From NCBI RefSeq assembly GCF_036588685.1, contig NC_086377.1, positions 5,084,001 through 5,148,000 on the forward strand: a stretch of 64,000 nt of DNA. The letters run 5' to 3'. Positions 9,563-51,900 of this stretch are shown one piece after another. Positions within the stretch are counted from its first letter, which is position 1. Every line of letters begins with the position of its first letter. A program made the translations under genes and the position numbers. This DNA is from Mytilus trossulus (Eukaryota). The notes under the pieces were generated by a model that had not been told where the DNA came from, ran no database searches, and saw only the letters and a program-made list of their open reading frames with translations.

Positions 9563-9681
9563 AGACCTGTATTTCATATGTATGAAAAGGTGTAGCCTAT
9601 GATTAAGATTATTACTTACAGTGTTTTGGGATTTTTGCTTATACTGTTGATAACAATAACATTAACGGTACCAACTTTCCT

Positions 9682-9725
9682 GCACCAGATGCGCATTTCG
9701 ACAATACATGTCTCTTTAGTGATAC
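9682..9725 (-). ncRNA. Degenerate minimal hammerhead ribozyme (core mutated); paralogous copy at 33750-33793
   Basis: Minus strand GUAUCA-CUAAAGA-GACA(UGUAU)UGUC-GAAA-UGCGCA-UC-UGGUGC; the CUGANGA box is mutated. Confidence 0.55.
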
Positions 9726-26550: not shown

Positions 26551-26871
26551 ACTGACCCCCAAATGTCATTATTTATCTAATTCACAGATGTCCTCATTCA
26601 TTATCTGAAAAAAAATATCACTGAACTAGTATATATATTTGTTTAGGGGCCAGCTGAAGGATGCCTCAGTTGCAGGAATTTCTTGCTGCATTGAAGACGG
26701 GGCCTGTTGTTTACCTTCTGCTGTTGTCTGTTCTATGGTCTGGTTGTCTCTTTGACACATTCCACATTTCCATTCTCAATTTTAGAGATCAAAGTCATCA
26801 TTACAGATAAATATTTCAATAATTGGTTATCCAAAATATGCATGATATGGATATAAAACTAAAGTAGACTT

Positions 26872-27013
26872 TTAGGGGCCAGCTGAAGGACGCCTCCGGG
26901 TGCGGGAATTTCTTGCTACATTGAAGACCTGTTGGTGACCTTCTGCTGTTGTTTTTTATTTGGTCTGGTTGTTGTCTCTTTGACACATTCCCCATTTCCA
27001 TTCTCAATTTTAT
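26872..27013. repeat. Second abundant interspersed repeat family (representative copy)
   Basis: gacacattccccatttccattctcaatttt tail, also at ~970-1135, 18390-18552, 20210-20480 (reverse), 26615-26785 and 52150-52295. Confidence 0.7.
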
Positions 27014-28920: not shown

Positions 28921-31900
28921 TACGGAAGCCGATAAGGGCCATTCAAAAAAAAAAATTATGTCGTAATTACGACATAGCATGTCGTAATTTCGACATAACA
29001 TGTCGTTATTACGACATCGCTATGTCGTAATTTCGACATAACATGTCGTTACAACGACATCGCTATGTCGTAATTTCGACATATCATGTCGTAATAACGA
29101 CATCACTAAGTCGTTATAACGACATCGCTATGTCGTAATAACGACATCGCTATATATAAAACAATATGTATTATGATTGCCCAGAGACTAAATGACACAG
29201 ATAATATTAACAACTATACGTCATCATAATGCCCCCTATAATTAGAAAAGCCCCCGCAAAGTCAGCTATAAAAGAGGGAGGAAAGATACCAGAGGGAGAG
29301 TCCCCGAAATGCTGTGTGGCAGACAGTGTTATTATTCAATTATTAGCTCCCTTGGTAAAACTCAAAATTTCATATTTAATGCATTTTATTGTTAAATAAT
29401 TTACATGAAGCTTAATAAGTACATATTTGTTAATTGCATAGCTTTTGCTATTTGAATTCATTGGTTAAAGATATTTATTTATATTGTAAAGTTTAATATT
29501 TGCATCGTCGCAAAATCTTTGGATACCTTCTTAGAATACCGTCAGTGAGAAAGTTATATATTTTACAAAAAAACTGAGGTGAATTAATGAACATTAATTA
29601 AACGGCTGTATAGACAGTTGTATGCGAGCCTTACTTGGCAGCTAACCATCCCATCTCCCTCAAAATAAGGGTATACTGCCTGGTTTCTTGTAATGAGGGT
29701 GAATTAAAGTATCAATTGCTCTAATGCTACTTTCAAATGTTGGGCACGATATTCCTTACAACACGTTTCACTTAAAATGCGACGTCGAAGAGGGTCTTTG
29801 ACTTCGATTAATTTTTGCAAGTTTTATTCGGTTTTTTATATTGTTGGTTGATTCTTGTTCTGTTCGTTTTGTGATGTCATTTTATAAAAAAATTACCTCG
29901 AGTTGTGGAAATCGATAAAATAATGTTTACCCTTTAAATTATTTCAACTTAAAATGCAGTACTGTAGGACGGAAAGATGGGACGGAAGTACATGTATACG
30001 GTTTTCATAATTTATTTTTATCATAGGATGTTTAACTTTCAAGTTGCACATCATCTGTCATTGTAAAATTTCTATATCTTAATTTATCCCCAATACAAAT
30101 ATATCTGACACTCTGCAAGTAAATCGAACATTTTTACCCTTGGTTAAATTTGAATAGAATTGTATTTTCCCTGACACATAAGTTGTCGAAATACACCCCT
30201 TCAATTACTTGAACCTTGGCTTGAGATTTATTTTCCCAAGTCATCTTCAGATATATACATTTTAAAATATAGTAATCTACTCCTGGGTCGTCCGCGTAAA
30301 CGGCAAACAAAAATATAATCCCGGTTTGTTTTTATAATTCGATGAAACGGTTTTCGTTGCTGTTTGGGATTCGTCTTTCAATTACCTCCATTTCATGCAC
30401 AAGTTTACATTGATGAAAAGTTCCGGCTTCGCTAGTACAGGAATTACTTTCATCACGAAATAGCAGGACAAATCGCGAAGTAAAACATTCCGTTAACTGG
30501 TATTAAGTGTTTTGATATTGGTGATTGCACCTAACTGAAGTGACGACTTTAAATGATCTATTTCGGAGTACTTCCGTAACATAAATTTCAATTTATTTTA
30601 TAAAATGGAATTTCCCCCCCCCCCCCCCCCCCCCCTGTTCCAAATTCTTTTAAATAAATCGTCAAAAGCTATACAATTAATAAAAATTGCAAAATTTAAC
30701 CTGTGTCAAACCTATTTCCCCGGGCGCCGGGAGTCTTTAGCAACATGCACTATTTTTTTTTCGGCAGCAATCATTAACATCTTTCTCCAAATTTCATAAC
30801 ACGATTTGTTTTAATTACCGTAAACATTTAATTGATACTTTAGCACATTTAACGTCGGAAATTAGCGTCTTTAGGATTTTAGACGTTTTCAGACATTTGG
30901 AAAAATTGGCTACCGTTTTGTAATGTATGGAAGCATTTTATTCCTTTAAGACTCAAATATGTAGTTAATAAGGAAAGAATCTTGGCATTTTTTACTCTTC
31001 GTATATCTAACTTTTGTTTTGATCAATTATAAAAAAAAAAATACGCCTTAACTGCTTTGAGGCAAATATTTGTACTTTTGTTAGATATTATTATTGTCTT
31101 ACTATTTTTATTCATTTTCTACTATAATATGCAGTCGAGTCAAATGAAATTTGGTAAAATAACGGTTTTAACGCCACAAAGAACCGACATATGTCGTTGT
31201 TCCTGTCAAAAATCAAGAAGATCACAGAATAAGAAATAGGATCACTATACATAACAGTTAAAACAGTTTTTCATAAATGTAACGTTGGATGGGGACATCC
31301 GTTTTTTTTCACATAGCTTTCTTTTTTTAATCCTCAAATACACTAAATATTAATTAGGAGATGATCAAGAGCTATAAAAACATAATTCAAAACATATATT
31401 GAATTTGTTTTAATATTGGTTCGTATTTTCTAACATTTTTATTATGTTTTGCGGATGAAATTTCGAAGATTCTGTTTTAAATCCTAGGGGTTGTAAGAAC
31501 ATCGCGCGTGCCCAACGTTTGAAAGTAGAAATAGAGCTATCTATACTTCAATACCCCCTTATACGAAGAAGCCATGCAGTTTGCGCTTATTTAAAGGGAG
31601 ATGGAAAGCTTGGCTTGACTTGGTTGTACAATTTCAGTCCTCTAATAATTCCACATTTTATTCTTACTGCATAGCTGTTCTACGACCGGTAGCTTGATAA
31701 TCTAAACGACTTTGTCTGACTGTACAGCCCTAACACTATGGGCCATGTTAATTGATATTGGTATATATAACATATATAAGTTTCTCACTGAAGGTATCCA
31801 AAGAAGGTAACCAAAGATTTTGCGACGATGCAAATATTAAACTTTACAATATAAATAAATTATCTTTAACCAATGAACTCAAATAGCAAAAGCTATGCAA

Positions 31901-32341
31901 TTAACAAATATTTACTTATTAAGCTTCATGTAAATTATCTAACAATATAATACATTAAATATGAAATTTTGAGTTTTACCAAGGGAGCTAATAATTGAAT
32001 AATAACACTGTCTGCCACACAGCATTTCGGGGACTCTCCCTCTGGTAGCTTTCCTTTTATAGCTGACCATGCGGGGACTTTTATAATTATCGGGGACATT
32101 ATGATGACGTATAATTGTTAAATTCTTTGTCATTTAGTCTCTTGCAAATCATAATACATATTCTTTTAAATATAGCGATGTCGTTATTACGACATAATAT
32201 GTCGAAGTTACGACATAGCAATGTCGTTGTAACGACATGTTATGTCGAAATTACGACATAGCGATGTCGTAATAACGACATGTTATGTCGAAATTACGAC
32301 ATAATTTTATTTTTTTTGAATGGCCCTTATCGGCTTCCGTA
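28921..32341. mobile_element. 3.4-kb non-autonomous DNA transposon with ~600-bp TIRs, IS3EU-like
   Basis: Ends tacggaagccgataagggccattc / gaatggcccttatcggcttccgta; 6-bp TSD AAAAAG (28915-28920, 32342-32347); empty site in copy 1 near 6670-6677; no transposase ORF. Confidence 0.85.
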
Positions 32342-32569
32342 AAAAAGCGTTCGGACTCGAACTATTTAAAAAAAAATATGCATTTTCGTCAGTATAATAA
32401 TGATTACATAGATTATTACTACACGCAATCAAACTAACTTTACATTGCAGTATTCCTACCATAATAATTAAGAGTGCATTTCTTTCTAATCAAAATTTTG
32501 TGAACGTTGTTTTGCGTTTTTACTCGTTTGCTAAACGCTACAAAAGCAGAAACAAATACATCTTTTAAT

Positions 32570-33182
32570 AAATGTTTTGATCATTTCTTTTTAACCCAAA
32601 CGATGCAAACGGCTAAGCGCGCACATATATTGATAATTTCTTTCTAACACAAACGATGCAAACGGCTAAGCGCGCAGATGTTTTGATCATTTCTTTCTAA
32701 CACAAACGATGCAAACGGCTAAGCGCGCAGATATTTTGATCATTTCTTTCTAACACAAACGATGCAAACGGCTAAGCGCGCACATGTTTTGAATCGTTTG
32801 ATTTTTTTTTAAACACAAACGATGCAAACGGCTAAGCGCGCACATGTTTTGATCATTTCTTTCTAACATAAACGATGCAAACGGCTAAGCGCGCACATGT
32901 TTTGATCATTTATTTTTAACACAAACGATGCAAACGGCTAAGCGTGCACATGTTTTGATCATTTCTTTCCAAGACATACGATGCAAACCGATAAGCGTGC
33001 ACATGTTTTGATCATTTATTTTTAACACAAACGATGCAAACGGCTAAGCGTGCACATGTTTTGATCATTTCTTTCCAAGACATACGATGCAAACCGATAA
33101 GCGTGCACATGTTTTGATCATTTCTTTCCAACACAAACGATGCAAACGGCTAAGCGTGCACATGTTTTGATAATTTCTTTCA
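32570..33182. repeat. 53-bp tandem repeat (~11 units)
   Basis: Same unit as 6900-7897. Confidence 0.95.
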
Positions 33183-34625
33183 AGTATTGTGACAGTTTGT
33201 ATTATTTTCGTTTTTATTTATTTTATTAAAAAAGTTTGAATTTTGAAGTTTATAGGTGTCAGTCGATCCCGGCCTGCCTCATCATCGGCAACAAAGCCAG
33301 GCATTGTACACGACTAGTTCCCCCACAAAATGTAAGATTCCAGACTCGGCTCTCACAGATGTAGTTCATATTTCGAGAGGCCGAGAGAAAAGAGCAACAA
33401 GAAGAACAAACTACAGTACAGAAATAACACCTTCTATTTTTTTGTTATTTATATAATACAAGCATACGTTTGCAAAGTTTACATAAACTTTGACAAACGA
33501 TGCAAACGATAAAAAATGCGTCTGCAGTGTGTCGTTTGTTAAACGATGTATTTGTTTCTACTTTTGTAGCGTTTAGAAAGCAACAACAAACGCGACACAA
33601 CGTTTTCAAAATTTTGGTTAGAAAGATATGAGACCTGTATTTCATATGTATGAAAAGGTGTAGCCTATGATTAAGATTATTACTTACAGTGTTTTGGGAT
33701 TTTTGCTTATACTGTTGATAACAATAAAATTAACGGTACCAATTTTCCTGCACCAGATGCGCATTTCGACAATACATGTCTATTTAGTGATGCTCGTGGT
33801 CGAAATATTTGAAATCCAAAGCTTAAATAAAAGATAACCACGGGGACCGAGAACACAGTTATTTCGTATTGCATTTCTTTTTGATAATAAATTCAAATAA
33901 AAAAAAACAAACCATCGAAATTGCACTATCTCAAAAAGAACTTCAGAGTGTAGTGTACTACTATTTGGAAATATAAAATCAAAGTTATAGAAAGGTCTAC
34001 CAGCTCTAACTCAAAATACTGACAATTCTGTGTTAACGGGTCTAAAATTTATTTTGAAATATTCAGACATACTAATTTGACCAAATCACTACTTGAAAGA
34101 AAGATTCAGCACCCAATTAAAAAAAATGTAATTTCATAATATTAATATTTCATGCATAAAAAAATAAAGTTGGAAAGTGTTTGAAAATAATATACAAGAT
34201 ATACACTGTTTTCACTAGGGACTAAGTGACGATATATGTGTCCTTGTGGTAACTCTCTGTATCATTGTTATACGATGATAACGGCTGTACACATATTTTG
34301 ACTATTCTATTAATTGTGTCTGTTTAGTTAACACATCAATGTAAATATAACGGAATTTAATGAGATTGTCATCAAAGTGAGAGGGTTAGCGCTATAAAAC
34401 CAGGTTTAATTCACCACTTTTTACATTTGAAAATGCCTGTACCATTTCAGGAATATGACAGTTCTTGTCCATTCGTTTTTATGCGTTTTGTTATTTGATT
34501 TTGCCATGTGATTATGGACTTTCCGAATTGATTTTCATCTAAGTTCAGTATTTTTGTGATTTTACTTTTTTCTGTTCCAATAACTATACTGTGTTATTAT
34601 CATGCCCATCAATAATAAATATATG

Positions 34626-35861
34626 TTAATGAATTTTGAATATAGATAAACACGAATATCCTACATGAATATAAATATCAGTAACAGCATGTATATCTAT
34701 GGTATCACGCAAGCTTAAAGAAACAACGGCTGAACCTGTACCGGTATGATGATTTTCGATTTGGTCACCAGAAAAGCGTGGCACTATACGCACATAAACT
34801 AAAGTGTTTTTGTTTTTCCTGATTTGATATTCTGCATCAGATAAATGGGTCATTATGCTAGCAATGATCAGGTATAGTCCAGGTTTCTCACATGTAAACT
34901 TTCCATTGGTTTGTAAGGTGGATAACGTATTGATTCCGTATGATGATCTGATGTTAGGAAATCTGATCACTGAATTGTTGTTATAGCGGTCACCAGTAGC
35001 GCACGCAGTAACGGCAACTGTAAAAGAGAAAATAAGATACATATAGCTAACAAATAGTATTTAAATATAGTAATGTGATAATGACCTGTAATCTTGTTTT
35101 TTTTTTAGGAATAATTCAACAGTATGTAATAATGCTGTATTTTGATTGGACGAGAGACCAGTTTCCCCCAGTAATTTCTATAAATTGAGAATTTCTTTTC
35201 TCTGCCGGTGTATCTGTCATTAAGAAATTTGAAGTTTGAATATTAAGACTACTGCCAGCAGCCGGTTGGATATTAAATCGTGTGAATATCGAAAAACGAA
35301 AATCGAACTTGCCGCTTACTTCACATGGCTGCATGCTTCTATTTGAAAATAAATCACAGACTTATCAAAAAACATTATGAACATATCAATTTCGTGAGTC
35401 TAACGCTCATTCAAAAAGAAGTCTTAATTAACTTATCATAATAATTATCTACCTTGCTCACTTTCCTTTGTCTGTTTATCTTCCAAGACCATTATGTCAT
35501 TTTTAATTCTATTTAACATTGTCATGGTTATCTTAGACGAATAATTTCTGTAGTAAGAACAACAATTTTCGAACTGTGTAGATTTTGATTGAACTGTATG
35601 TAGCTCTGAACGCAATATTTCAAAGTCCTTCAGAATGATAGGTATTTTAGATGTAATATTGGTAAGTTTTTTCACTTCCATTTCAAGTTGTCCAATATTT
35701 TGTATAATTTGTTTTTGTTCTTTTCTTTCCTCTATGATGATATCAAAGAGCGCATTGTAACGGCTATTTGTTATTTCACTATTTAAGGAGCCAGGCGTTG
35801 TCAGTTCAAAAAGAAACCCGAATATTGTAGGAAGAAGAAACAGCCAAATTACTCCCACCAT
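34626..35861 (-). CDS. Secreted C1q-domain-containing protein (C1qDC), 2 exons, 266 aa
   Basis: Exon 1 35453-35861 (signal peptide and coiled-coil, phase-1 GTAGAT donor). Exon 2 34626-35017 (gC1q: VIRFPNI..GKFTCEKPGLY..HTGTGSAVVSL..SCLSIFKI). Confidence 0.9.
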
Positions 35862-36297
35862 AATTTATATTTTTTTCACATGAAGTCGAACGGTGTCGGA
35901 GAAGCTTTTGGTACTTAAAACATCTACGATGTTTGAATGTTATCTATAAGTACCCACCTTTTGGCAAAACACCCAAATTGCATGGAGCTTATATAATGTG
36001 TTGATAAAATAAACTCTTCAACATGTTCAAATATAGATATTTGACTTCATCAAAAGACACGTGCATTTAATCATCTTTAATAGTGAACAAGGCAGGTATA
36101 CCATAAATAAAAACAACCAACATTTTTCATAGCAAACGACGTGAATTAGAACTGAAAACACTACAATGTTAAAAATTGTAAAAATTAAAACATGTTAAAT
36201 GGCAGACAATGACTTGCAATTGATATGACTTATTAACGACTAAAATGAAAACGGGGAATAGGTCAAGGAGACACAACCCGTCCAAAGAGATGATAAC

Positions 36298-36499
36298 TGA
36301 AGTACCTCAGGGTCATTGGTGGTGCTCCACATTGGAGGCAGATCCGGAAGACGAGAGAGCCTCGTTTCGGATCTGCCGGCAGTCGAAAACCTAGAAGCAG
36401 AAGCCAAAGCACGCTGATTCTAGCCGACCCAGAGAATAATTAGATAACCGTCTAACTGTACTTGCAAGATAGCCAGGGTAAGTTTTGAGAAAGCTTACA
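36298..36499 (+). repeat. 5' LTR (202 bp)
   Basis: Identical to 45801-46002 except base 3 (TGA vs TGT). Confidence 0.97.
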
Positions 36500-36500
36500 T

Positions 36501-36514
36501 TGGCGCTGCGAGCA
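36501..36514 (+). promoter_or_regulatory. Primer-binding site, probably tRNA-Ser
   Basis: TGGCGCTGCGAGCA, 1 nt after the 5' LTR; complementary to a tRNA 3' end ...TGCTCGCAGCG-CCA resembling tRNA-Ser(CGA/TGA). Confidence 0.75.
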
Positions 36515-37185: not shown

Positions 37186-38916
37186 ATGGCTAGAGTCCAC
37201 ATAAACTCTGCCACTTTTGAGGAATTGTTATCAATTCCAGGGGTAGGGGCTAAAATTGCCGCAAAAATTTGGGAATTGAGGGAGGATAAAGGAATTCTGG
37301 AGTTGGAGGACCTACGGGAGGTTCCTTATATGAGAATAACGGAGGCAGCTCTAGAATCTATGGATTTTAGTACCTCCCTGCCACCCAACAGGGGGTCTAA
37401 TAAATTTTGCAAAGAGGAGATAGGGCATCAAGAGAAGGTGCAAAGGATTGATAGCCTCATACAGGCCAGGGGTAGGGGGCAAACAGAGTATCCCAGTCAA
37501 TCAGTAGAAACACCCAGAGCCAGGGAGTCCGTGTCCACATCTCCATCCCAACACATCAATTTCCAAGATGGTGGGGAACTTAACCGGGGTTTCAGGGAAG
37601 ACATGGGGACCCACCAGGACCGATGGGACAGGCCCATGGGTGCTTATGGGGGTCCAAGAGATTACAAGTATGAAGGGGAAACACCTCGGTCTAGATATAA
37701 CAATGCCGGAGATACAGGAAGGGGAAGAGGGGGTTTTCAAAACCAGTTTATTGATAATGAGGGTCCAAGGCTCAGAGATGCCCAGCCGGAGAGCGAGGCT
37801 CCGGCATCAAGGCACGCCAGTAGCATGGGGTACCCCACAGGGTCAGGGGAACCCAGACGGGGATATGGGGACCAGAGAAGCTCTCGTCGGGATGCATATG
37901 ACCACCAGGGGAACATGGGAGGGTCAGATAACCAAAGACAGAGGGGGTCTATGGGGGTTAGACCTCCCATCCTACAAAAGAGCTTAAAGTATGATGGGAA
38001 AACTAATTGGCAGGCTTTCTATGCCAAATTTTCCCGATTATGCCAGGTTAGTGGGTGGTCTTCAGGGGAGTGCAAGGATCAATTGTGCTGGTCCCTTGAT
38101 GGGAAACCCAGTGAGTTTTATGCCTTGCTCGTGGAAAGAAGGCATGACTTGTCTTATGAAGACTTGGTGAGTAAGTTGGCCAAACGATTTGGGTTCAATG
38201 AGTTGCCAGAAACAGCCCAAGTCCAATTTAACATTGCCAGGCAGGGTGGGGATGAAACCTTAGAGGACTGGGCCGACAGGGTCCAATCACTCGCCACAAA
38301 AGCCTTCCGTCACCTTCCTGAAGATCACATGTACCAGCAAGCCATCATGAGATTGTGTCAGGGGGCCTCAGATAAGGAGAGGGGAATGTTGGCCTCCAAT
38401 GCCAAACCAAAGAGTATTGAGGAGGCAGTGGATAAAATTCGTATGCACCAACATAACCACCAGGCCATATATGACCGTAGTGCCAGAAAAGAAGTAAAAA
38501 GTGTAAGTCCTGAGATCCGAAGCCGGGGTGGGGATCACTATACTGTCTGTTCCACATCAGGACCAGTCCCCAATAATGCTCCTTCCAAAATTATCCCCAA
38601 AGAACATTCTCCTAAAGATGTCCAGGATTTGAAGGACCAATTTCATGCCTTCAAGGGGGAGGTAAGTGGGACTCTGGGCAATATCATGTCTGAAATACAA
38701 AAGCTATCTTTTGCTGTCCGCAATAATGCTAGGCCCCCATCCAGAAGCCCCTCTCCTCGTGCCGGTGGTTGTTTCCATTGCGGGGAGGCAGGCCACTTTA
38801 AAAGGGAATGCCCAAAGTTTCAAAGGTCTAATTCTCCTCGACCTGGGGGAAAAAAGGTAACCTTCCAGGACAACAAGGGTCCGTTAAACTCCAACGGGTC
38901 GACTCAAGAGGTCTGA
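37186..38916 (+). CDS. gag: Gag with N-terminal helix-hairpin-helix, capsid-like domain and CCHC zinc knuckle
   Basis: ACCATGG Kozak start; VHINSATFEELLSIPGVGAKIAAKIWELRE (ComEA-type HhH); YDGKTNWQAF..RQGGDETLEDW; CFHCGEAGHFKREC at 38770-38811. Confidence 0.92.
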   Translation: MARVHINSATFEELLSIPGVGAKIAAKIWELREDKGILELEDLREVPYMRITEAALESMDFSTSLPPNRGSNKFCKEEIGHQEKVQRIDSLIQARGRGQTEYPSQSVETPRARESVSTSPSQHINFQDGGELNRGFREDMGTHQDRWDRPMGAYGGPRDYKYEGETPRSRYNNAGDTGRGRGGFQNQFIDNEGPRLRDAQPESEAPASRHASSMGYPTGSGEPRRGYGDQRSSRRDAYDHQGNMGGSDNQRQRGSMGVRPPILQKSLKYDGKTNWQAFYAKFSRLCQVSGWSSGECKDQLCWSLDGKPSEFYALLVERRHDLSYEDLVSKLAKRFGFNELPETAQVQFNIARQGGDETLEDWADRVQSLATKAFRHLPEDHMYQQAIMRLCQGASDKERGMLASNAKPKSIEEAVDKIRMHQHNHQAIYDRSARKEVKSVSPEIRSRGGDHYTVCSTSGPVPNNAPSKIIPKEHSPKDVQDLKDQFHAFKGEVSGTLGNIMSEIQKLSFAVRNNARPPSRSPSPRAGGCFHCGEAGHFKRECPKFQRSNSPRPGGKKVTFQDNKGPLNSNGSTQEV

Positions 38917-38951
38917 GTCTGGCCCCTAAACCACGGAGTATAAAGGACCTC
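38883..38951 (+). promoter_or_regulatory. Putative -1 ribosomal frameshift signal (slippery heptamer plus H-type pseudoknot)
   Basis: G TTA AAC, 6-nt spacer, stem GGGTCGACTCA/TGAGTCTGGCCC, loop GAGGTC pairing with GACCTC (38946-38951). Pol is in the -1 frame and open from the heptamer. Confidence 0.75.
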
Positions 38952-41900
38952 ATGATAAGCCATAACCCACCTTACTTAACTAAGGAGGGTACTATCAGTC
39001 AAATAGAAATGATACCGGAGGAAATAATTTCCCCACTTGTGCAGGAATGCCTAGAGGAACCGTCCCATTCCGAGGAACTAGGGGTCATTAAATCACTACC
39101 TCCTGTCCCACCAGACCCCACGTCCACCAAGGAGAAAGACATAGCTCAAACAGCAAAACTAATAGAGGGGCCTAAGAGGGAACCCATCAATCTCATAGTC
39201 CCGGACATGTCTGAATCGGGGTCACAAGACGAAGAGTCGGGGGAGGAAGGGGAACAAACACTGTGTGATAGCTCAAACAGTGATGGGGAGGGGGACTTAG
39301 TGACAGAGGGGGAAAAAGAAATGATAACCATAAGTCAGTTAACGGGGGGTACTATGTATCGGGTGCCTGTGGTAGTCCAGGGTCACAGGGTCGACGCTGT
39401 TGTAGACACAGCAGCTCAGGTTACCCTAATATCCGAGGAAACGTACAAAAGTTTAAAGGAGCTCGAGCCACCTCCTATTCTTAAGGAAGTGGTGATGAAC
39501 ACTGCAGGAAAGGGCCTACAAATGAATGGGTTTGTTGCTGGGCCTTTTTATATTAAGTTGGGGAACCAAGATTTCACATGGGACATATATGTAGCACCAA
39601 TTGGAGATCAGATGCTTTTGGGAATAGACTTCTTAAGGAAGCAGGGCATATCGCTCGACTTGCATAGGAATCAATTGTCCATTCACGGGGAGGTCATCCA
39701 AATGTCATGGGGTCAGGCCAGTTCATTGCCCCAAACAACTGAGGTACGGGCAGGAAAGAATCACACAGTCCCAGCCAATTCAGTTCAAAGAGTCATGGGA
39801 GTGTTAGCCAAACCCATGGGTCGAGAATACATCATTGAGGCAAAGGCTGAGGGCTGTTTGCTCATACCCAGAACCTTACATGATGTAGGTCAAGATCCGG
39901 TGTTGTGTCTGATAAACCTCACCGATAGTCCCCTGGTGATCTCAAAAGGGGATCTACTAGCCCAAGCTCAGGAAGTCGACATGGGGGAACCCCCGGGCCC
40001 TAAAGTGTGCAAGATGGGGGTTGCTGGAGAGGTTAAGGAAAAATTGTTGCCCCAACACTTACAAGAGATGTTCACCAGGTCCTGTGAGGATTTGTCTAAG
40101 GGGGAGGAGGAGACCTTGTGTTCCCTGTTACAGGAATTTCAGGATGTCTTTGCTAGCAGTGACTTAGATCTGGGCCATTTCACGGCCTTGGAACATGGCA
40201 TTGACACCGGGAATCACCCCCCCCCCCCCATTAAACAGCGAATGCGGCGCACCCCCTTAGGTTTTGCCCAAGAAGAGGAGGCTCATTTGGAAAAAAATTT
40301 ACAATCTGGGGTAATTCAGCCATCCGTATCGGAGTGGGCTTCTGCCCCAGTCCTCATACGGAAAAGGGATGGTAGCGTTAGGTGGTGCGTGGACTATAGG
40401 AGGGTCAATGGGGCCTGTTCCCGCCAAATCTTTGCACTCCCCTTAGAAGAAGAGTGCCTAGACACCCTAGCAGGAAATGTGTGGTACTCCAAGCTGGATG
40501 CCAATTCGGCGTATTGGCAAGTCAAAATAAAAGAGGATGACCGGCCAAAAACGGCTTTTATCACCAAATATGGGCTGTTTGAGTTTGCACGCATGGCTTT
40601 CGGGCTATGCAATGCCCCAGCCACATACGCCCGGGTCATAAGCCTTGTACTCCGGGGGTTAATATGGCGGGTAGTGTTGGCTTTTTTGGATGACATATTA
40701 GTCTTGGGAAGGGATTTTGGGGACCACTTGGCAAACCTGAGGGTAGTATTTGAAAGGTTTAGGACGTACGGGCTCAAACTAAAACCCAGGAAGTGTGATT
40801 TATTTAGGAAAAAGGAAGAATTTTTAGGGAGGGTGGTAGGTCCCGAAGGGATGGAAATTGGGCCGGGATATGTAAAAGATGTAAAAAACTGGCCAAAACC
40901 CCGGAACTCAAAGGAAGTAGAACGGTTTTTGGGATTCGCAAACTATCACAGGGCCTTTATAAAAGACTATACTAATATAGCCTTACCCCTTCAAGCCTTA
41001 ACCGGAAAACGCCCCTATTTCTGGGGAAACGAGCAACAACAGTCTTTCGATAGACTCAGGGAAGCCATGGTGTCAGCCCCTGTTTTGTCATTACCCAATG
41101 CCACTGATCCCTTTATCTTAGACACGGATGCTTCCGACAAGGCTATTGGGGCAGAATTATTGCAGGTCCAGGGGGGACAGGAACGGGCCACGTCCTATGC
41201 TAGCTTTACCCTTACCCCAGAACAGCAGAAATATTGTACTACCCGAAAGGAGCTGTTAGCCATTGTCAGGTTCACCAGGCTATTCAGACATTACTTGCTT
41301 GGGCGGAGGTTTACGGTTCGAACAGATCATAGTAGTTGGTTAACGAATTTCAAGGAACCCCAGGGACAATTAGCCCGGTGGCTGGAAGAAATCAGTCAGT
41401 TTGATATGGAAATCAAACACCGGCCAGGGGCTAAACATCCTAATGCAGACGCTTTGTCTCGATTGCCTCAATATGGACCGTGTCCCGAGTTTCAAGTAGA
41501 CAAGGTTCTAGCCAATTTGCCCTGTGGGGGATGTACCTACTGTGCCCGAGCTCAACAAAATTGGGGACAGTTCACGGAAAATGTTGATGATACCATACCC
41601 TTGGCAAAGAGACCCTATGGTAGTACACAACCCAAAGACACACGAGAACCAGTGGTGCAAATATCCCGGGTGTCTGTGTCAAAGAGGGGGGACGAATTAG
41701 CCATATGGTCAAAGGGGGAGGGTGACATCTGGGTGCAGGAAGTAGGAGGGGACCTAGGGGTCAACTTGGGCTACAGTCAGGAAGAGTTAAAAGAAAACCA
41801 AAGTAAGGACCCAGACTTAAAATGGGTGGTTCAATGGAGGAAAACAAAAGGGGAACCCTCTGAGGAGGAAATCTTCCTCAGCGGTCCCGCCTCCAAGTAC

Positions 41901-43292
41901 TACTGGTTAAATCGGGAATTATTTGTCCTTAGTGGGGATGGTGTACTGTACAGGAAGGGGGTGAAAGGAGAGGCAGATAGGGTGGTCATTCCCCAAGTAT
42001 CAAGGAAGGAACTCATGGAGTTGTGTCACGATATTCCTGCAGCGGGCCACCAAGGGGGGGACCGAACCTACCAAAGGATCAAGCCAAGGTATTATTGGAG
42101 AGGGATGAAGAAAGAGATTGAACAGTATGTAGCAAGTTGTGCTTTGTGTAGCCAAAACAAAAAGGCTACTCGCCCAAACCGTCACCCTATGGTGAAACAT
42201 CACGCCGGGGCACCAATGGAAAGGGTTCATCTAGATTTTGTGGGGCCCCTCCCAAAAACAGAAAGGGGAAATGAACATATCCTCATGATGATCGATCAGT
42301 TTACCAAATGGGTGGAATGTGTCCCTCTCCCCGCCTAGGGCGCAGAACTAACAGCCCGCACGGCAGTGAATGAGTTCTTCTCCCGTTTCGGGAGTCCCTT
42401 TCAGGTATTCACTGATCAGGGGAGGAACTTTGAATCCCATCTGTTTAAAGCCATGTGTGACCTGCTTCAAATACACAAAAGTAGAACCACCCCATACCGC
42501 CCCTCCTCCAATGGTCAAGTAGAGCGTTGCAATCGAACGCTGATGGCTTCAGTGCGGTGCTTTGTGGGAAAAAATCAAAAGTCCTGGGATCTATTCCTTC
42601 CGCAATTAGCTGGTGCGTTCCGTGCTTCAGTCAGTAGAAGCACCGGGTTTACTCCTAATCATCTCATGTTGGGCAGAGAAGTCAATCAACCTGCTGAGTT
42701 GATGTTCAGGGGGCCACAGGGGGAGGAAATTCAGGATAGAGAAAAATATGTTTCAGACTTAGAGGAGGCCATCCAAGGGGCACACGAGCTGGCCAGGGCC
42801 AACCTAAAAACGGCACAAGAACGCCTCAAAAGGGATTACGATCTCAAGGTGGTAGTCAAAAGGTTTAAGGTGGGGGATCTAGTGTACCAATTGGACACGG
42901 CCACCATCAAGGGAAAATGTCGGAAACTGACACCATCTTGGAAGGGCCCTGGGGTGGTGGTGGAAAGTCTCACTCCATATCTTTACAGGGTCAAAATGAA
43001 AACAGCAATGGTGGTGGCCCATCATGACCGGATTAAGTTGTGTAAAGATAGGGAGGTCCCAAATTGGTGTAAAAAACTACAAGCCCAAGTTTTAAGTAGA
43101 AATTGGAAGGAAATAGAGGAGTTGGAACCCAAGGGAAAAAGGGGAAAAAACATTTATTGCTCATACCGGGGACCAGAGGATGGGGGTCTCATGATTAGAT
43201 GTGACGAGTGCAGGGAATGGTTCCATGGACGATGCGTGGACATCACTCCTGAGGAGGCGGACAGAATGGACGCTTATCAGTGTCCTGGATGT
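38883..43292 (+). CDS. pol: Pol polyprotein (protease, RT, RNase H, integrase, C-terminal PHD); interrupted by an in-frame TAG at 42336-42338
   Basis: DTAA protease (39405), FLDD RT (40683), DTDAS..TDH RNase H, HHCC and D-D-E integrase, WKGP motif, PHD at 43155-43292. The frame resumes directly after the stop. Confidence 0.93.
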
Positions 43293-43355
43293 TCGGTCTC
43301 CACAGAGGTGCACGTGTCCAGGATCTCCCTGCACTCTAAGGTAAATCTATTTCAG

Positions 43356-45394
43356 ATGAATAACAACACCAACAGTATTGACAAAACAGGGGATGGAAGC
43401 CAGCCACCTTCTCCAGAGCAGGCCTCCGTCACAGAGGTGACGGAGGAACTGGTAGTGTGTGTGTCGGAGGAGGAGCTGAGGCAGCTGGACCCTGAGGTCC
43501 AGGGGAGCCCAGGGGCTGCCTTAGAGGTATGTGGGGGGTCCGAAGGGGGGTCTGAAGGGGTTGAGGGGAAGGGGGAGGTGAAGAAGACCAAGAAGAAGAG
43601 GAAGTCGAGGAGCAACAAGAAGAGCAGAGCTGCCAAGAAGAAGGCCACGGCAGCAACCTCACCTCTCCTGACAACCTCACCTCAGGGGGTGGCTCAGGGT
43701 CAGGAGGTGTGTCGGGGCCAGTCTGGCTCCCCAGCTTCCGGTGAGGTGGCAACACCTCACTATGGAGTTCAGGGTGAAGCAGTTGGTACTGGACTGTCTT
43801 GTCCAGTTTCTGGCTGTGAAACCCGGGGACCAGGCCTGGAAGGGCACATTCTCGCGGAGCACGTGGCCGAGGTGTTCCGTGACCTGGTAGTCTCCGACCC
43901 AGGGTTAGCCCGGGTGCGTCTCACATCGCTGAGCACACTCTTCAGGGCCCTGGGGGGGGCTGCTGTTGGGGACCCCATCCATTGGGTGATAAGCCAGCTG
44001 GAGACTGTGGGGCTGACTCCAGAGGACTTGACCGCTGAGTGGGGAGCCATGGCAGCAGTGTGCCAATTGGCGCGATGGGAGGTTCCGCGAACCTTTACAC
44101 TGTCACCAATAAACTCACCTGCAGTCCTTATGCATTGGAGGGCGCAGGTGGAGTTGATGGCTTTACTACAGGAACATCAGCGTCAGGCCTTTCTGGGGAA
44201 GGTTAACCTTAGCTCCAGTGAGCCGTCCCAGGCGAGCTCTTCTAGTGAGCAGGGGAGTCCACCAGCCAAGGCAGGAGTTTTTAGCCGGCTGGGGGCTCCG
44301 GTTTGCACACAGGGGACTCCCAGGCCCATGGGGCAGGTTGGGGCGTTCAGTTCCACGGGGCCCTCTCCCAGGTCCATTCCCTCCCTCATGTCCCTCCCCA
44401 CCCGGCCTGTACCCTCCCTCATGTCTCTTCCACGTCCTGGTCCCAGCAGGTCACTTCCAAGTCTAGGGTCAAGAGGCTCATCCTCATCTGTGGGGGCACA
44501 GGGATCAAAGTACCCGGGGAATCCCTCAGGGAGTAGGGGAGTGGAGTCTCAATTGTGCAGGGATCTTCCGGAGGCATTTGACAGCCATATGCATCTGGAT
44601 AGGTCCCTGACCAAGATGGGGCTGCCTCCTCGGACATCTCTGGGTGATTTCCTAAGGGTGCGGTTGGACCCTGCCCCTGTGGATCCAGTCAAGCTGGCTG
44701 GAGGGGTTGCAGTTTTCTGCAACCCGAAGACTTGGCCCAGTGTGCCTTTGAGGCTGGAGCCAGGGTGGGTTGGAGCAGTGGGAATCCACCCAAAGAGTGC
44801 TGGGCAGTTTGAGGACGCCGTTTAGCACCGGTTCCACCAACTGGTGTCGCACCCAAGTGTGTCCGCCCTTGGAGAGGTGGGAGTGGATTACACTGTGGAG
44901 GAAAAACTACACGCCCGGCAGATATCGACCTTGCGATGGGCACTCCAGTCCTGCCGCTTTGACCAGCCTGTGGTCTTGCACATTCGGGGTGGCAAACTGG
45001 ATAGGGTTCACGCCCGAGCCCATCGCGAGGTCTTAGAGGTTCTGAAGAGTGTGGTAGTCAATCCGCTGCAGTTAATTCATCTCCACTGTTTCCAGGGGGG
45101 ATTGCTCAGGTGCGGGAGTGGCAAGACTCATACCGCAACGCTTATTTTGGGTTTGGTATGGGTGTCAGGTCCTTTAACTCTGAGCAGAAGGAGGCCTTGA
45201 GGTCGGTGCCCCCATACAGGATTCTCTTGGAGAGTGATGCCCCTTACTTCCCCCCACCAAATGCACGGCATGGCCACCCTCATTAACTTTATGAGGTGGC
45301 AAAGGTGGTGGGGACAGTGAGGGCAGAATCACCGAGGGAAATTGTACGGGTGGCCCACCTCAATGGTAGCCGTCTGTACGGAGTTAACCCGTAG
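43356..45394 (+). pseudogene. tatD: Env-position ORF in frame with pol: basic NLS, C2H2-like finger, TatD-family nuclease domain (44571-45394); disrupted in this copy
   Basis: DSHMHL, AVGIHP, ALGEVGVDY, PVVLHIRG, HLHCF, YFGFG, RILLESDAPY, GHP..LYEVAKVV..NGSRLY. Lesions: TAG 44823, 1-bp loss in the G-run 45095-45100, TAA 45284. Confidence 0.88.
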
Positions 45395-45786: not shown

Positions 45787-45800
45787 AAAGTTGGGGGGAG
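45787..45800 (+). promoter_or_regulatory. Polypurine tract
   Basis: aaagttggggggag immediately before the 3' LTR. Confidence 0.85.
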
Positions 45801-46002
45801 TGTAGTACCTCAGGGTCATTGGTGGTGCTCCACATTGGAGGCAGATCCGGAAGACGAGAGAGCCTCGTTTCGGATCTGCCGGCAGTCGAAAACCTAGAAG
45901 CAGAAGCCAAAGCACGCTGATTCTAGCCGACCCAGAGAATAATTAGATAACCGTCTAACTGTACTTGCAAGATAGCCAGGGTAAGTTTTGAGAAAGCTTA
46001 CA
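45801..46002 (+). repeat. 3' LTR (202 bp)
   Basis: TGTAGTACC...AAGCTTACA followed by the TAAC TSD. Confidence 0.97.
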
Positions 46003-46659
46003 TAACAGTCGTATAACATCAATGGGTGTTCAACGCAGCGAGAAAATCCTATATACTCAGCGGTTGGTATCAGCTTAATAAAACTGTGTACTTTTTCAAT
46101 GAAAACAGACGTCATACTAAACTTAAAACCATATAAATGAACTTAAATTACAATTCATACAAGAATATCAAAGACAAAAGGCTCCTGACCTGGACAGGTG
46201 CACAACGCTGTGGGGTTAAACAATTCTGTAAGATACCCTTTTTGATAGCAACAAGTGGTGCCTGTGTTAGGACTGGAACGGCGTGTGGTCACAACGACCT
46301 GATACCAGAAATGAGGTTGTAGAAATCTAAATACTATTATTCCGAAACAATATAGTAATGAAATTAAAACAATATAAAGAAATATGCACAGGCACTTGTT
46401 TATATCCATAGAAAGGTCGACTATCCATATAGATAGAAGTACACGTATGTGGCTAACGGAATTGATTTAAGGTCACGACCGTCTCCGCTTCGGACTCATT
46501 TTGTACCCTTTAAGTTAAAGCAAAAATCTGTACATTATATGAATCGAAAAATTGAATATTCACCTTCAACACAGTTCATATGGTTATGTTCATTTTAATT
46601 TGCAATGAAAGATGTAGATTTTGGTGTAAAAAAAATATTTTATAAACAATCTGTATATT

Positions 46660-48907: not shown

Positions 48908-51900
48908 TTAATCAATTTTGATGATAGACAAACACGAATATTTCCCATAAATGTAGCTATTGGTGACCACATGTATTTCTAAAATATCATGTCTATTCAA
49001 ATTGTCAACAGCTGATCCTGTCCCGGTATATTGTTGTTGAGGACCACTAGAATAGTCTGGTACTATACGGACGTTAACCAAAGCATTTCCATTTTTTCTT
49101 ATTTGATAAGCTGCATTAGGTGAATGGGAGGTTATGCTAGCAACGATGAGGTATAATCCAAACTGATCACATGTAAATTCTCCACGAGTTTTAAAAGGAA
49201 CTACACTAACGACTCCATGTGAGGTTTTGAAGTCCGGAAATTTAACTGCTCTATTATTGTAATTGTATCCACCATCAGTACACGCAGTCAAATAAACTGT
49301 AACAGAAAAAAAACTCAATACTACACAATCAGCAACAAATATAATTTATAGATCATAAATTGCTAAACTGACGATAACATAAATAAATGGTTCGCATATT
49401 AAGATTGAACGGACTTCTTTTGGTCGGAATTATTTGACACTAGTTATATAGAGACTTGTACAATCAAACTCAGGAGAGCAAAGACCATTCCAATCCGATT
49501 AAATAGATCTACGAAGAGATGATATATTTCCTTTGGCACCATCTTACGGTGTTTATATTTCACAACTAGTTCACTATTCCCGTGTCTGTTTTGACGTTTT
49601 GATTTTAACGAACGTATTCTATGTATTAATGGTAAATTATTAAGCCAGGGAATTCATTACCACAAATTACTCAAAACCTAAACTAAGTTATTCCATAGAT
49701 ACACAGATTTGGTATAGAAGTGTGGTTGTACCTGTAAAAACTTATTTCAAACGGGATAACACATCCTCATTTTTACGGAAATGTAGATGCATGATTTTTT
49801 TATTAGTTGTTAGTGGCTTTGAACTAGATGTTAGTAACTGCGAGAACTCTCAGATCATTACTTATTGTCTTTTTGTTGTTGGGATATACAAGTATCCGGC
49901 CACGTCTACTCTGTATTTTTGTTAGATGTATTTCTATTTGTATCTATCTAATGAGTTTTTTTCAACTGATTTTGATAGTTCGTTCTTATGTTGTACTGTT
50001 ACACCACTGTCCCAGGTTAGGGGAGGGTTGAGATCCCGCTAAAATGTTTAAACCCGCCACATCTGTATATATGTGCCTGTCCATAGTCAGGAGCCTGTAA
50101 TTCAGTGGTTGTCGTCGTGATGTGTTACAAATTGATTTTTCGTTAATTGTTTTTTACATAAATTAGGCCGTTAGTTTTCTCGTTTGAATTGTATTACATT
50201 TGTCATTTCGAAACCTTTTATAGCTGACTATATTTATGAGGTATCGGCTTTGCAAACTGTTGAATACCGTACGACGACCTATAGTTGTTAATTTCTGTGT
50301 CATTTGGTCTCTTGTGGAGAGTTGTTTCATTGGCAATCATACCACATCTTTTTTTTTTTTATATATATTAGCTCTATTCAAGTAAAAGTACTGGTGTATA
50401 TCTACAATAACGGATGAATTATGTTTACGGAAACAACCTATGTGTCTTTTGTCTTTATACAAATTATATTGCTCCATTGGTGTTTACATGAATATTGAAA
50501 TTGACCCCTTCTCAGAAATTAATTTGAAACATCATTAACACCACTATCACCATTACATGAATAAAACAAATTGTTTATTTTGATTTTATTAATACAAATA
50601 ATTGAAGGGTATACGAGGAGTATGTGGCATGGCATAAATTATTCTTAAACAATTGCATCCCAGTATCAAAATCATATGAAAAATATACTTTCATTAATTC
50701 TTAAAATAAACTGAAAATAAAGGTTAATTTCGAATTCAAAAAAAAATTTGTATACACAGACAGTCGTTTTCTCTTTTGATTAGTACAAATCTCAACTGTC
50801 AGCTGAGGAAAATTCATTTCATACCATACAGTTAAGGTTGTGCTCGTTATTAAAGACCGTGAATTAATCGTGATTTGTAATTAATCAAATATGTGTCCTC
50901 TGCTCTTTAATTGATTGTTCTTTGAATGGCGATTATACAACACCTCTTTATTTTCATAGCGTGATGGGGTTCATTATAACAATATACTAATTTGGAATGT
51001 TAATTTATGTATGTTTTTAGTGCTAAATAATTAAAAAAAGGGCTAAGGAAGAAATAAATAGATTCAAACCAAAAATATTAACGTGTATATTTTCATTAAA
51101 ATGTTCTTTAATTACAAAACTTATTAAACACACATATATTTTCATGAATACCAATGTCCTAAATTAGAAAAAAAATCACTTACTTCTTAAGAACAAAATA
51201 ATATGCATTATGTATGTAGGACTCGGATGTGCGATGGGGACACTGAATTATGATTGTCCGTTTGATCATGTGCGATGGTCTATTTGACGCATGATGACTA
51301 GTTTAAAATCGACAAAATTATGTGCAATTTTTATGAGATTGTATTTTGGTCATGTTGGTATCTATGTATGATTGTAAGTTTATAAGCCCCTTTAAAACTG
51401 TTCCGATGTTGAATATGCATAAAATATTTTCAACTCGAATTTAAAAATTAGCCATCCATCATTCGGATAATTTTTAAACGATTGTATGAACAGTGGCTTA
51501 TTTTTGTCCAAGCCAATTTACAAAGTACATTACAACGATACAGACATGAATGGTTATTCGATAACTATAAACCAGGACTGATTTAAATTGAAAGGGTAAC
51601 ATTCTCGATGATTAACTTAATAAACATGAAAAGCCGCTTCTAGGAAACAACTTGATCTCATCGTCGACATGTGAACATGTTGGTATGATACGGGTTATGT
51701 TATTCTCATATATCATGTATATTTTATGATTGTATAATACTAAACCGCTAACGGGAGGGATTGTGCTTGATTTTCATATGATGAAGACAAAATCTTTCTA
51801 TCAGTTTAATTGAGGTCTGGAGCTGGCATGTCAGTAACTTCTAGTAGTTCTTTGTTAATTTATGTATCATTGTCATTTTGCTAAGTTTCTTTTGTTACCT

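Follow-up and report, generated by a model that had tools for sequence, protein, structure and literature searches.

A TATDN2-related TatD domain as an accessory gene in the envelope position of a lineage of Ty3/gypsy retrotransposons

In a lineage of Ty3/gypsy retrotransposons with a helix-hairpin-helix (HhH) Gag, the env position is occupied by a long-standing accessory gene, ORF3, for which we reconstruct, with a probability of about 0.95, a single fusion of a TATDN2-related TatD domain to an older zinc-finger ORF3, followed by descent under purifying selection with the metal-binding residues kept and with loss of TatD in at least one family. The copy described here lies in a window, that is, the whole stretch of 64,000 nucleotides analysed, from Mytilus trossulus (GCF_036588685.1, contig NC_086377.1, positions 5,084,001 to 5,148,000); coordinates below count from its first letter. 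A sequence-only reading of this DNA had described a TatD module in place of env and had weighed it against a one-off, neutrally evolving capture nearly identical to a host TATDN mRNA. The domain proved to be multicopy, distant from the host gene and subject to purifying selection, as befits an accessory gene of a lineage.

The element (Table 1) is a Ty3/gypsy LTR retrotransposon in which paired TG..CA LTRs, a primer-binding site, a polypurine tract and a short target-site duplication are all present, and in which Gag precedes the domain order protease-RT-RNase H-integrase. The two LTRs are identical at 201/202 positions, and the primer-binding site, which we take to be tRNA-Ser-like, starts identically in the elements L208 and L043. 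The PHD finger at the C-terminus of pol lies at about 43164-43292. As had been claimed, TatD sits between the integrase(-PHD) region and the polypurine tract/3' LTR, inside the element bounded by the duplication; ORF3 (ATG at 43356, stop codon at 45392-45394) is thus env-like in position, between pol and the 3' LTR with a splice acceptor in front. Pol has a single RNase H region, TatD being the extra domain, and the intact RNase H motifs rule out TatD as a replacement for a dead RNase H. The three lesions noticed earlier in TatD were all found (stops at 44823-44825 and 45284-45286, with a frameshift near 45090-45095 between them), but pol carries a further stop, within the integrase, at 42336-42338.

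Table 1. Features of the TatD-bearing element in the window
Feature	Position	Strand	Details
Target-site duplication, left copy TAAC	36294..36297	.	4-bp TSD
5' LTR	36298..36499	+	202 nt, TG..CA; splice donor between 36477 and 36478
Primer-binding site	36501..36514	+	
gag	37186..38916	+	N-terminal helix-hairpin-helix (HHH_3 E 4e-8), capsid-like Retrotrans_gag, zinc knuckle
pol	38832..43355	+	protease, RT, RNase H (acidic motifs present), integrase, C-terminal PHD finger
Splice acceptor	43330..43355	+	pyrimidine tract; AG abuts ORF3 ATG
ORF3, env position	43356..45394	+	disordered N-terminus, zinc-finger/helical domain, linker, TatD; three breaks
Basic tract, putative nuclear localisation signal	43581..43643	+	NLS role predicted
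Conserved zinc-finger plus helical domain	43788..44213	+	finger at 43800-43862
TatD barrel, TATDN2-related	44568..45391	+	broken in window copy
Polypurine tract	45790..45800	+	
3' LTR	45801..46002	+	carries splice donor
Target-site duplication, right copy TAAC	46003..46006	.	

The motifs DSHMH, GIHP, GEVGVD, LHIR, HLHCF, ESDAP and N..RLY all occur in the window copy in the order first described, spread across two frames. Two pieces of this broken copy match the Pfam TatD_DNase profile (PF01026; E 1.5e-12 and 1.1e-7), and the first and last pieces, each searched alone, gave no Pfam match. The profile and structure checks that had been proposed both bore out the assignment: a naturally open copy matches at E 8.6e-34 over model positions 1-245 of 253, the curated cut-off of the profile being passed, and is modelled as a TatD barrel with a pLDDT of about 95 over the domain, for which Foldseek returned PDB entry 6l25 at E 2.6e-13. 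The His pair, Glu, His, His and Glu-x-Asp residues of TatD_DNase are present in the element TatDs, the D-x-H-x-H and E-x-D columns having served as filters. The other four metal-ligand columns, which did not, are kept in 151-152/154 relatives with a divergence of about 50% or more. In human TATDN2, residues equivalent to the GE glutamate and to the ExD pair are reported to be required (PMC10711561).

TatD is not confined to the window copy but occurs in many copies belonging to at least ten families. Of the 116 TatD loci in this Mytilus genome, 69 have a same-strand integrase match less than 9 kb upstream, and none has one downstream. LTR pairs enclose TatD in the window family and in two others, the latter pairs having been found by direct comparison. 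Two foreign contigs (L043 and L123) show the same layout, and the named homologs belong to bivalves, abalone and a sea urchin; the lineage apparently extends to other molluscs and to sea urchins. Among the matches listed for one generic-pattern search, 1/80 metagenome and 1/80 genome loci fell in the TatD-element family, the others being ordinary-looking cellular TatDs. TatD holds as a lineage gene for most families, with the exception of one nested family, L033, which lost it: about ten integrase matches of this type, at 60-61%, were found, with TatD listed for none. L033 thrives without TatD, which indicates that the domain is not strictly essential. The window family is GC-rich and G-skewed (GC content 0.50, skew +0.11), a make-up prone to R-loops; R-loop-prone composition was rejected as a general trait, five elements of the second clade having a GC content of 0.36-0.39.

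For 11 elements, the integrase tree and the TatD tree are congruent (rho 0.85, 0/5000 permutations; the window family's integrase is missing from this comparison), with the same two deep clades in each. Between subfamilies, the dN/dS of TatD is 0.12-0.20, that is, purifying, and that of the zinc-finger/helical domain is 0.11-0.26; in diverged subfamilies, the linker shows values of 0.21-0.46 and the ORF3 N-terminus 0.47-0.71. The three breaks of the window copy, and the presence elsewhere in the genome of a TATDN3-like host copy without introns (L035), might point to a host TATDN mRNA transduced into this element as a single or neutral event. The dN/dS values and the congruence of the trees refute this reading, and the integrase linkage, the foreign contigs, the retained metal ligands, the placement in the TatD tree and the fraction of Pfam TatD rows open across the whole domain (41/140, 38 of them integrase-linked) are also contrary to it; we regard its probability as negligible. 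Outgroup elements and L033 have a zinc-finger ORF3 without TatD, which indicates that TatD was added to an older accessory gene.

The element TatDs are not near-identical to the host gene, with only 37-40% identity over short stretches to a spliced TATDN2-like gene. In a quick tree in which TATDN1 was not sampled, 47 element rows group by themselves on one side of a branch adjoining TATDN2 (SH-aLRT 91), and bacterial TatD and TATDN3 types fall outside the element-plus-TATDN2 side (SH-aLRT 98). Judged by sequence, the element TatDs are related to animal TATDN2 and are not nested inside it. The cysteine of the FCD motif is found in 143/154 relatives, 35/37 TATDN2-labelled proteins and 13/119 cellular TatDs; that of the HCF motif is kept in the element TatDs and also in 105/119 cellular TatDs, and both are matched to C538/C656 of human TATDN2 by spacing only, a predicted correspondence. 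Animal TATDN2 shares with the element protein the barrel with D-x-H-x-H, GxHP, GE, LHxR, HCF and ExD, the FCD cysteine and a long disordered N-terminus, whereas the element TatD is intronless, multicopy and mobile and follows a zinc-finger/helical domain of which TATDN2-type proteins are devoid. With bacterial TatD/YcfH/YjjV and TATDN1/TATDN3 (PDB 1yix, 6l25, 4p5u, 2xio, 2y1h), the fold and metal-binding residues are common, but identity in structural alignments is 16-24%.

Outside the barrel, the basic tract lies where it had been reported, and at least 4 K/R per 7 residues occur upstream of the finger in 7/9 ORF3 proteins. The C-x4-C-x9-H-x4-H finger is likewise present, but it opens a conserved folded domain of about 140 aa (model pLDDT 92.5) and does not stand alone between linkers. 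A profile of this domain finds 12/12 lineage loci and none of two outgroup loci, two host TatD loci or the TATDN2-type proteins. Foldseek gave no match for it at E<=0.001 in PDB or BFVD, the best VIA-align Z score is 4.6 (rmsd 3.7, 74 aligned), a value that unrelated helical proteins reach equally, and the best ESM Atlas score is 0.88, to unnamed clusters; TatD is the sole domain matched in a Pfam scan of the ORF3s. The presence of a finger-bearing ORF3 in the TatD-less outgroups and L033, which makes the finger the ancestral working part, would fit a barrel kept for binding or scaffolding without catalysis in an ORF3 acting mainly as a zinc-finger regulator of element transcription or splicing. 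A dead enzyme is expected to lose its metal ligands, and the unfiltered ligand columns are kept almost throughout, so that we consider this possibility highly improbable.

No membrane anchor is evident in 8/9 ORF3 proteins, in which the maximal 19-residue hydropathy is only 0.92-1.42 (1.75 in L043), and the N-termini of the nine proteins are hydrophilic or weak as signal peptides. Pol ends in a stop before ORF3 in 11/11 other TatD elements, and AG lies within 1 nt of the first ORF3 ATG in 8/10 elements. The pol stops, the position of the AG and the lack of strong hydrophobic 19-mers favour a separate, putatively nuclear ORF3 protein. In the window family, no stop separates integrase-PHD from ORF3, which continues in the same frame (7/8 copies), and a Pol-ORF3 polyprotein is possibly made there too; a search of databases for Pol-TatD fusion proteins returned 0/1612 among candidates of 1183-3375 aa, which is weak evidence.

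The statement that the module has no introns is true within ORF3, but a working splice acceptor precedes it. The splice evidence consists of RNA-like contigs, none on record as RNA, from runs chosen for holding ORF3; the contrast in depth between ORF3 and gag-pol was set aside on account of this choice of runs and of the use of contigs. Contigs of 3/4 runs leave the LTR at 36477/36478, and the donor motif is the same in the LTRs of 4/4 families inspected. The acceptor at 43355 is used in contigs of runs X1 and X3, which join a host exon with a GT donor to ORF3, and an X6 contig starts at 43356; in X1 and X3, the donor of the 3' LTR is joined to a downstream host exon. None of the listed contig joints links the LTR donor directly to the ORF3 acceptor, both sites being joined to host exons, and the mapped splicing is host-driven exonisation. 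The insertion implied by X1 and X3 was not found in the assembly: none of 38/38 candidates has an LTR on C1, and the part of the intron examined, 10 of its 22 kb, contains no match to the element. A putative env-style subgenomic mRNA, spliced from the LTR donor to the acceptor at 43355, is strongly implied as the source of ORF3.

As for function, human TATDN2 is described as preferring R-loop RNA and acting only slightly on DNA, AP sites or plain RNA-DNA duplexes, as cutting hairpin RNA and as requiring its long disordered N-terminus for binding (PMC10711561); it has also been studied in medaka germ cells (PMC12709183). If activity is conserved, this substrate preference makes an RNA-directed role likelier than proofreading of cDNA or repair of AP sites, although the distance between the element TatD and host TATDN2 means that the substrate may have changed. 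We tentatively propose, at somewhat less than even odds, that ORF3 is a nuclear zinc-finger-tethered RNase that clears R-loops or nascent RNA at element loci. The protein would enter the nucleus via the basic tract, the zinc-finger/helical domain would bind element DNA or RNA, and the barrel, a metal-dependent 3' exo/endoribonuclease after the manner of TATDN2, would clear element RNA from chromatin, whether it forms the RNA strand of R-loops or is bound there otherwise, such that element loci would stay transcribed and small-RNA-guided silencing would lose its foothold on nascent RNA. The full scenario, in which an early TATDN2-type R-loop RNase was captured and combined with a new zinc-finger DNA/RNA-binding domain into a self-targeted anti-silencing nuclease stripping element RNA from element chromatin, in a cross-phylum lineage of LTR retrotransposons of marine invertebrates, is a more doubtful proposition; ORF3 would then be a counter-defence gene of a sort for which we found no earlier account.

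The in-frame Pol-ORF3 arrangement of the window family speaks against a chromatin-directed RNase, as it would allow packaging into particles; so do the success of L033 without TatD and the low GC content of the second-clade elements. A Pol-borne form could then exist, and TatD might work in the particle or the pre-integration complex, trimming or proofreading cDNA ends, removing primer remnants or helping integration-gap repair. The HhH DNA-binding module of Gag, the 3' exonuclease activity of bacterial TatD on single-stranded RNA or DNA and the AP-endonuclease activity of TATDN1/3 (both PMC10711561), and the extra RNase H domains gained by other LTR lineages (PMC5348765) would suit such a role. 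It is nevertheless unlikely given that ORF3 is separate from pol in all the other TatD elements, that the native RNase H is intact in its motifs, and that TATDN2, the nearest relative, has the substrate preference cited above. Rather improbable, too, is a counter-defence nuclease acting outside chromatin, which would break down either the small RNAs of the host, mature or as precursors, or stray cDNA and hybrids before these could trigger nucleic-acid sensing. Such a function would accord with an accessory gene in the env position with functioning splice sites, with its dispensability in one family, as might be expected of arms-race genes, with the faster divergence of TatD than of integrase between families (identities of 22-73% vs 41-88%) and with the cleavage of hairpin RNA by TATDN2; the basic tract and zinc-finger domain would instead suggest the nucleus, and the dN/dS of the domain is purifying, not positive.

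Accessory genes reveal what limits a retroelement, and a TatD in the env slot that has been conserved between families with deep splits, and apparently between molluscs and an echinoderm, implies a pressure that has gone undescribed, be it R-loops, silencing or cDNA processing. The elements form a natural comparison set: outgroups with a zinc-finger ORF3 alone, most families with finger plus TatD, L033 with TatD lost, and the window family with a Pol-fused form. The abundance of genes annotated as 'TatD/YcfH-like' or 'TATDN2' in bivalves finds an explanation here, since these are probably transposon genes that can inflate counts of gene-family expansion, and the same probably holds for animal-type TatD genes in symbiont MAGs. 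Should the R-loop reading be true, the more than 100 divergent natural versions would supply a collection of sequence-tethered R-loop nucleases, and proteins of the host could acquire the enzyme by fusion with exonised copies.

Known captures by retroelements comprise envelope proteins, extra RNase H, chromodomains and dUTPases. In the freely accessible literature searched, we found no description of TatD in LTR retrotransposons; a squid study labels a TATDN2 gene in a Hox cluster. The mollusc Gypsy clades MolGy1-16, C-clade and Cigr-1 were classified on RT/RNase H only, and TatD, ORF, PHD and nuclease are absent from the text available, as are TatD and PHD from the supplements searched (PMC6238403). 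Because M. galloprovincialis was among the species surveyed there, the TatD lineage probably belongs to one of these RT/RNase H clades.

In errantiviruses and similar Ty3/gypsy elements (Metaviridae), env or an env-like ORF3 is expressed from a spliced subgenomic mRNA. The TatD elements share with such env-bearing elements the layout LTR-PBS-gag-pol(PR-RT-RH-IN)-ORF3-PPT-LTR, a donor in the LTR or leader, an acceptor just before ORF3 and a 4-bp TSD, but their ORF3 has a zinc-finger/helical domain and TatD in place of a signal peptide or membrane anchor, their Gag begins with an HhH module, and one clade has an integrase PHD finger. Plant Tat and oomycete Chronos and Archon are LTR lineages with an additional RNase H (PMC5348765). 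As in these, a Ty3/gypsy lineage captured a host nuclease domain that selection retained; in the TatD elements, however, the domain is a TIM barrel and not an RNase H, it is encoded in most families in a separate, putatively spliced ORF3 and not in Pol, and the native RNase H motifs remain.

TatD-bearing retrotransposons form a lineage that is real, widespread and selected. In the window, the lineage is represented by a 9.7-kb island (GC 0.50, compared to 0.33 in the flanks) with paired LTRs, a PBS and a PPT, flanked by the target duplication TAAC; it carries an accessory gene, ORF3, in the env slot. All the TatD motifs that the sequence-only reading had named are present in ORF3 in the right order, and TatD_DNase was recognized by Pfam in two ORF3 pieces (E 1.5e-12 and 1.1e-7); two other pieces gave no Pfam match when scanned alone. 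The closest named protein comes from Mytilus edulis (96%). The window copy is dead yet young. The PHD finger that ends the integrase is limited to one of the two deep clades of these elements and is possibly a chromatin-targeting module, analogous to chromodomains. By eye, similar Gag N-termini are found in both deep clades (the window element; the elements L206 and L207; and the metagenome contig L043), and the L043 piece gives no Pfam match despite this likeness.

Features of the element and its surroundings (window coordinates)
Feature	Position	Details
5' LTR	36298-36499	202 nt; LTR pair match 201/202
Splice donor in LTR	36477/36478	contig loose ends in runs X1, X3, X6
ORF1		HhH, Gag, zinc knuckle (Pfam)
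ComEA-like helix-hairpin-helix module at Gag start	37186-37332	HHH_3, E 4e-8
pol		protease, RT, RNase H, integrase (Pfam)
Stop in pol	42336-42338	
PHD finger ending integrase	43164-43292	Pfam; also in L031, L033, L034, L043, L123
Predicted ORF3 acceptor	43354	contig loose ends in runs X1, X3
ORF3 (+)	43356-45394	
ORF3 breaks	44823-44825; near 45090-45095; 45284-45286	
3' LTR	45801-46002	202 nt; LTR pair match 201/202
Tandem host genes (-)	34626-35864; 48908-49345	repeats at 52595, 54236
Long inverted repeats	28958-32324; 2522-4781	internal 21-22-nt or 63-nt subrepeats
Old segmental duplication	469-9743 vs 26130-34178	about 24-26 kb apart
Satellite arrays, 53 nt and 55 nt	6848-7960; 22928-24215; 32519-33302	

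Tandem host genes surround the element, and their products have a signal peptide, a coiled coil and a putatively C1q-like domain at the C-terminus; the long inverted repeats in the window are probably foldback or MITE-type elements.

With 40 of 54 candidates scored, 50 stretches of the genome match the ORF3 DNA; a dozen of these are near full length at 81-100%, and among the 10 best copies, 6 have an uninterrupted TatD domain. The LTR pairs of five further copies match at 202/202 (three copies), 193/195 and 197/202, and exact 4-bp TSDs flank three of the five with both LTRs fetched. With 150 of 158 candidates scored, the Pfam TatD model yielded 140 genome matches, corresponding to 116 loci after merging. 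In at least 69 of the 116, and in at least 62 of the 85 long loci, a same-strand integrase lies upstream at less than 9 kb (median 1.4 kb for the 69); among the integrase matches listed, none lies downstream of a TatD locus. The linkage counts are lower bounds because the integrase list comprises the best 149 of 1343 candidates. TatD as an accessory gene in the env position of gypsy elements is thus a lineage trait. Among the matches listed, TatD follows 11 of 17 integrases that are 80-100% identical to that of the window, 15 of 17 at 63-79%, 4 of 21 at 54-62%, 35 of 39 at 45-53% and 5 of 55 at 36-44%. We count 41 of the 140 Pfam matches as uninterrupted over the full domain, and an integrase is linked to 38 of these. 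Two distant families have LTR pairs that are 237/237 identical (L206/L032, TSD GCTC) and 99.5% identical over 196 nt (L208/L031), with Gag N-termini resembling the window HhH by eye.

Several loci depart from this arrangement. L003/L012 (G000:C5:52.26 Mb) consists of the acceptor, a fully open ORF3 and the 3' LTR, the 9 kb upstream of ORF3 containing neither gag nor pol, and is a candidate for host co-option, or for simple truncation. Intronless TatD frames without a listed integrase nearby are L035 (C10:9330557-9331288), C14:38793433 and C22:99564; L035 falls among cellular TatDs in a quick tree, presumably resembles TATDN3 and is perhaps a retrocopy.

When codons were compared pairwise with those of a single naturally open frame, the six diverged copies had TatD dN/dS ratios of 0.14, 0.15, 0.14, 0.12, 0.20 and 0.20, with a silent-change excess in the five tested (p 2.5e-6 to 3e-19, assuming 26% silent sites). 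The ratios elsewhere in ORF3 are 0.21-0.46 for the linker and 0.47-0.71 for the N-terminus where alignable. Ratios scatter among the youngest copies (0.18-0.59, with amino acid changes only in one of them), as expected after insertion. The neutral dN/dS of a one-off transduction was not seen in the diverged copies, and neutral transduction is an exceedingly improbable explanation of TatD.

A filter requiring both end motifs and 220 residues retained 154 of 192 homologs (38 dropped); in the retained sequences, the active-site columns outside the filter are nearly invariant (GxHP His 151, GE Glu 152, LHxR His 151, HCF His 152), and it is quite improbable that TatD serves in a non-catalytic role. 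The structure prediction that had been proposed for the enzyme, made for a natural copy, gave a confident barrel that matches solved TatDs by structure as well as sequence, a disordered linker and a confident 140-aa zinc-finger/helical N-domain (pLDDT 92.5), for which the structure searches returned no assignable relative. In a quick maximum likelihood tree of 103 sequences (TATDN1 not sampled; root assumed), a single branch (SH-aLRT 91) separates the 47 element sequences from the others; they adjoin TATDN2-type proteins, and most cellular TatDs lie farther off (98). At the FCD motif, 143 of 154 relatives, 35 of 37 TATDN2 and 13 of 119 cellular TatDs have a Cys, which is aligned in 7 of 11 element loci. 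The spliced TATDN2-like host gene (L042), which is 50-59% identical to named coral TATDN2, shows no near-identity to the element TatD (37-40% over two short stretches). Given this divergence and the tree position beside TATDN2, the sequences indicate that the capture is ancient, from the TATDN2 side, and not from this host gene.

Pairwise identities of integrase and TatD correlate across 11 elements, the window family left out (rho 0.85; 0 of 5000 permutations as high), and the two trees agree on the sub-pairs and on two deep clades, supported at 100/100 and 99/98. The tree comparison proposed earlier, run here with integrase, thus shows congruence that reflects co-inheritance rather than co-adaptation because relatives share history. 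The presence of TatD in other members holds for the integrase-linked loci and fails for one family, L033, which is nested in the PHD clade and retains the N-domain (E 5e-23) without TatD, and thus has lost it. In L033-type ORF3, an unrelated tail replaces TatD; the open frames that run through integrase are very long in L033 and about ten related integrase matches, reaching 2395-2548 aa. In two outgroup elements, L209 (G000:C7:7.60 Mb) and L210 (C3:41.08 Mb), the same slot holds, by eye, an ORF with tandem C2H2-like fingers and a coiled-coil-like tail, with no match to the N-domain profile and no TatD among the matches listed, suggesting that a zinc-finger ORF3 is probably older than TatD. This ORF, located after integrase behind a pyrimidine-rich tract, is another uncharacterized accessory gene.

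A donor motif is present inside the LTR in all four families examined, and in 8 of 10 other elements, the first ATG of ORF3 follows a T-rich tract whose AG is at most 1 base away. Contigs containing ORF3 came from four runs of four studies, none recorded as RNA and taken as guessed RNA. One X6 contig starts at 43356, and contigs across the three ORF3 break sites are open there. The X1 and X3 loose ends match two host exons on contig C1 that are separated by 22 kb, the first ending at GT and the second beginning after a pyrimidine tract and AG (host gene, C1:69081061-69103108; paralog pair, C1:72196412-72208506). In these animals, whose organism labels differ, an intronic copy was apparently exonised as a cassette of ORF3 and part of the 3' LTR, which by our reading continues the frame of the upstream host exon; the part of the intron checked in this assembly shows no such insertion. 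The cassette uses the LTR donor and the ORF3 acceptor, which shows that both work as splice sites. The joint of the element's own subgenomic mRNA is absent among the junctions listed for the four-run contigs.

Outside this genome, contig L043 carries a whole element with open gag and pol-PHD and a separate 690-aa TatD ORF3. A profile search of 1.84 billion representatives recovered 1374 proteins at E<=1e-30, and among the best 150 clusters, many align with the N-domain as well as with TatD. Most of 30 clusters looked up carry no species name. Named homologs, compared as proteins only, come from Mya, Mercenaria, Dreissena, Ruditapes, Ostrea, Haliotis, Pecten and Lytechinus. L123, filed in a bacterial symbiont MAG, encodes integrase-PHD followed by TatD and is best read as animal DNA inside a bacterial bin. 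Element-type TatD proteins under Thiodiazotropha and Sedimenticola MAGs (P0008, P0023, P0024, P0324-P0326, L123) are probably host DNA in symbiont bins.

Human TATDN2 degrades R-loop RNA from the 3' end and requires its disordered N-terminus for binding; DNA, D-loops, plain hybrids and AP sites are poor substrates for it (PMC10711561). TATDN2 also shields fish germ cells from R-loops (PMC12709183). ORF3 has no membrane segments, a basic patch before the finger is usual in ORF3 proteins, and the RNase H motifs in pol are intact. Together with the TATDN2 activity, these features favor, with a probability of about 0.4, a nuclear, finger-tethered RNase: ORF3 would enter the nucleus, the zinc finger would tether it at element loci, and TatD would remove R-loop RNA or chromatin-bound RNA. 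Against this reading, the element TatD is distant from TATDN2, AT-rich families occur in the second clade, a Pol-fused form exists and a TatD-less family thrives. No stop separates pol from ORF3 in 7 of 8 window-family copies, and pol ends before ORF3 in all 11 other TatD elements. Processing of cDNA or of integration by TatD appears doubtful, and a cytoplasmic counter-defense function is unlikely.

No description of a TatD-bearing retrotransposon was found in the literature searched (Repbase and closed journals lying outside the search), and TatD is unmentioned in the text and readable supplements of a mollusc LTR survey (PMC6238403) and in the accessible part of a bivalve TE survey (PMC10294476); the lineage is apparently undescribed. 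ORF3 is not an env, the element TatDs are not nested within TATDN2, and the TatD element is distinct from the elements with an additional RNase H (PMC5348765). The window element is a member of Ty3/gypsy, and its ORF3 enzyme is a member of the TatD family.
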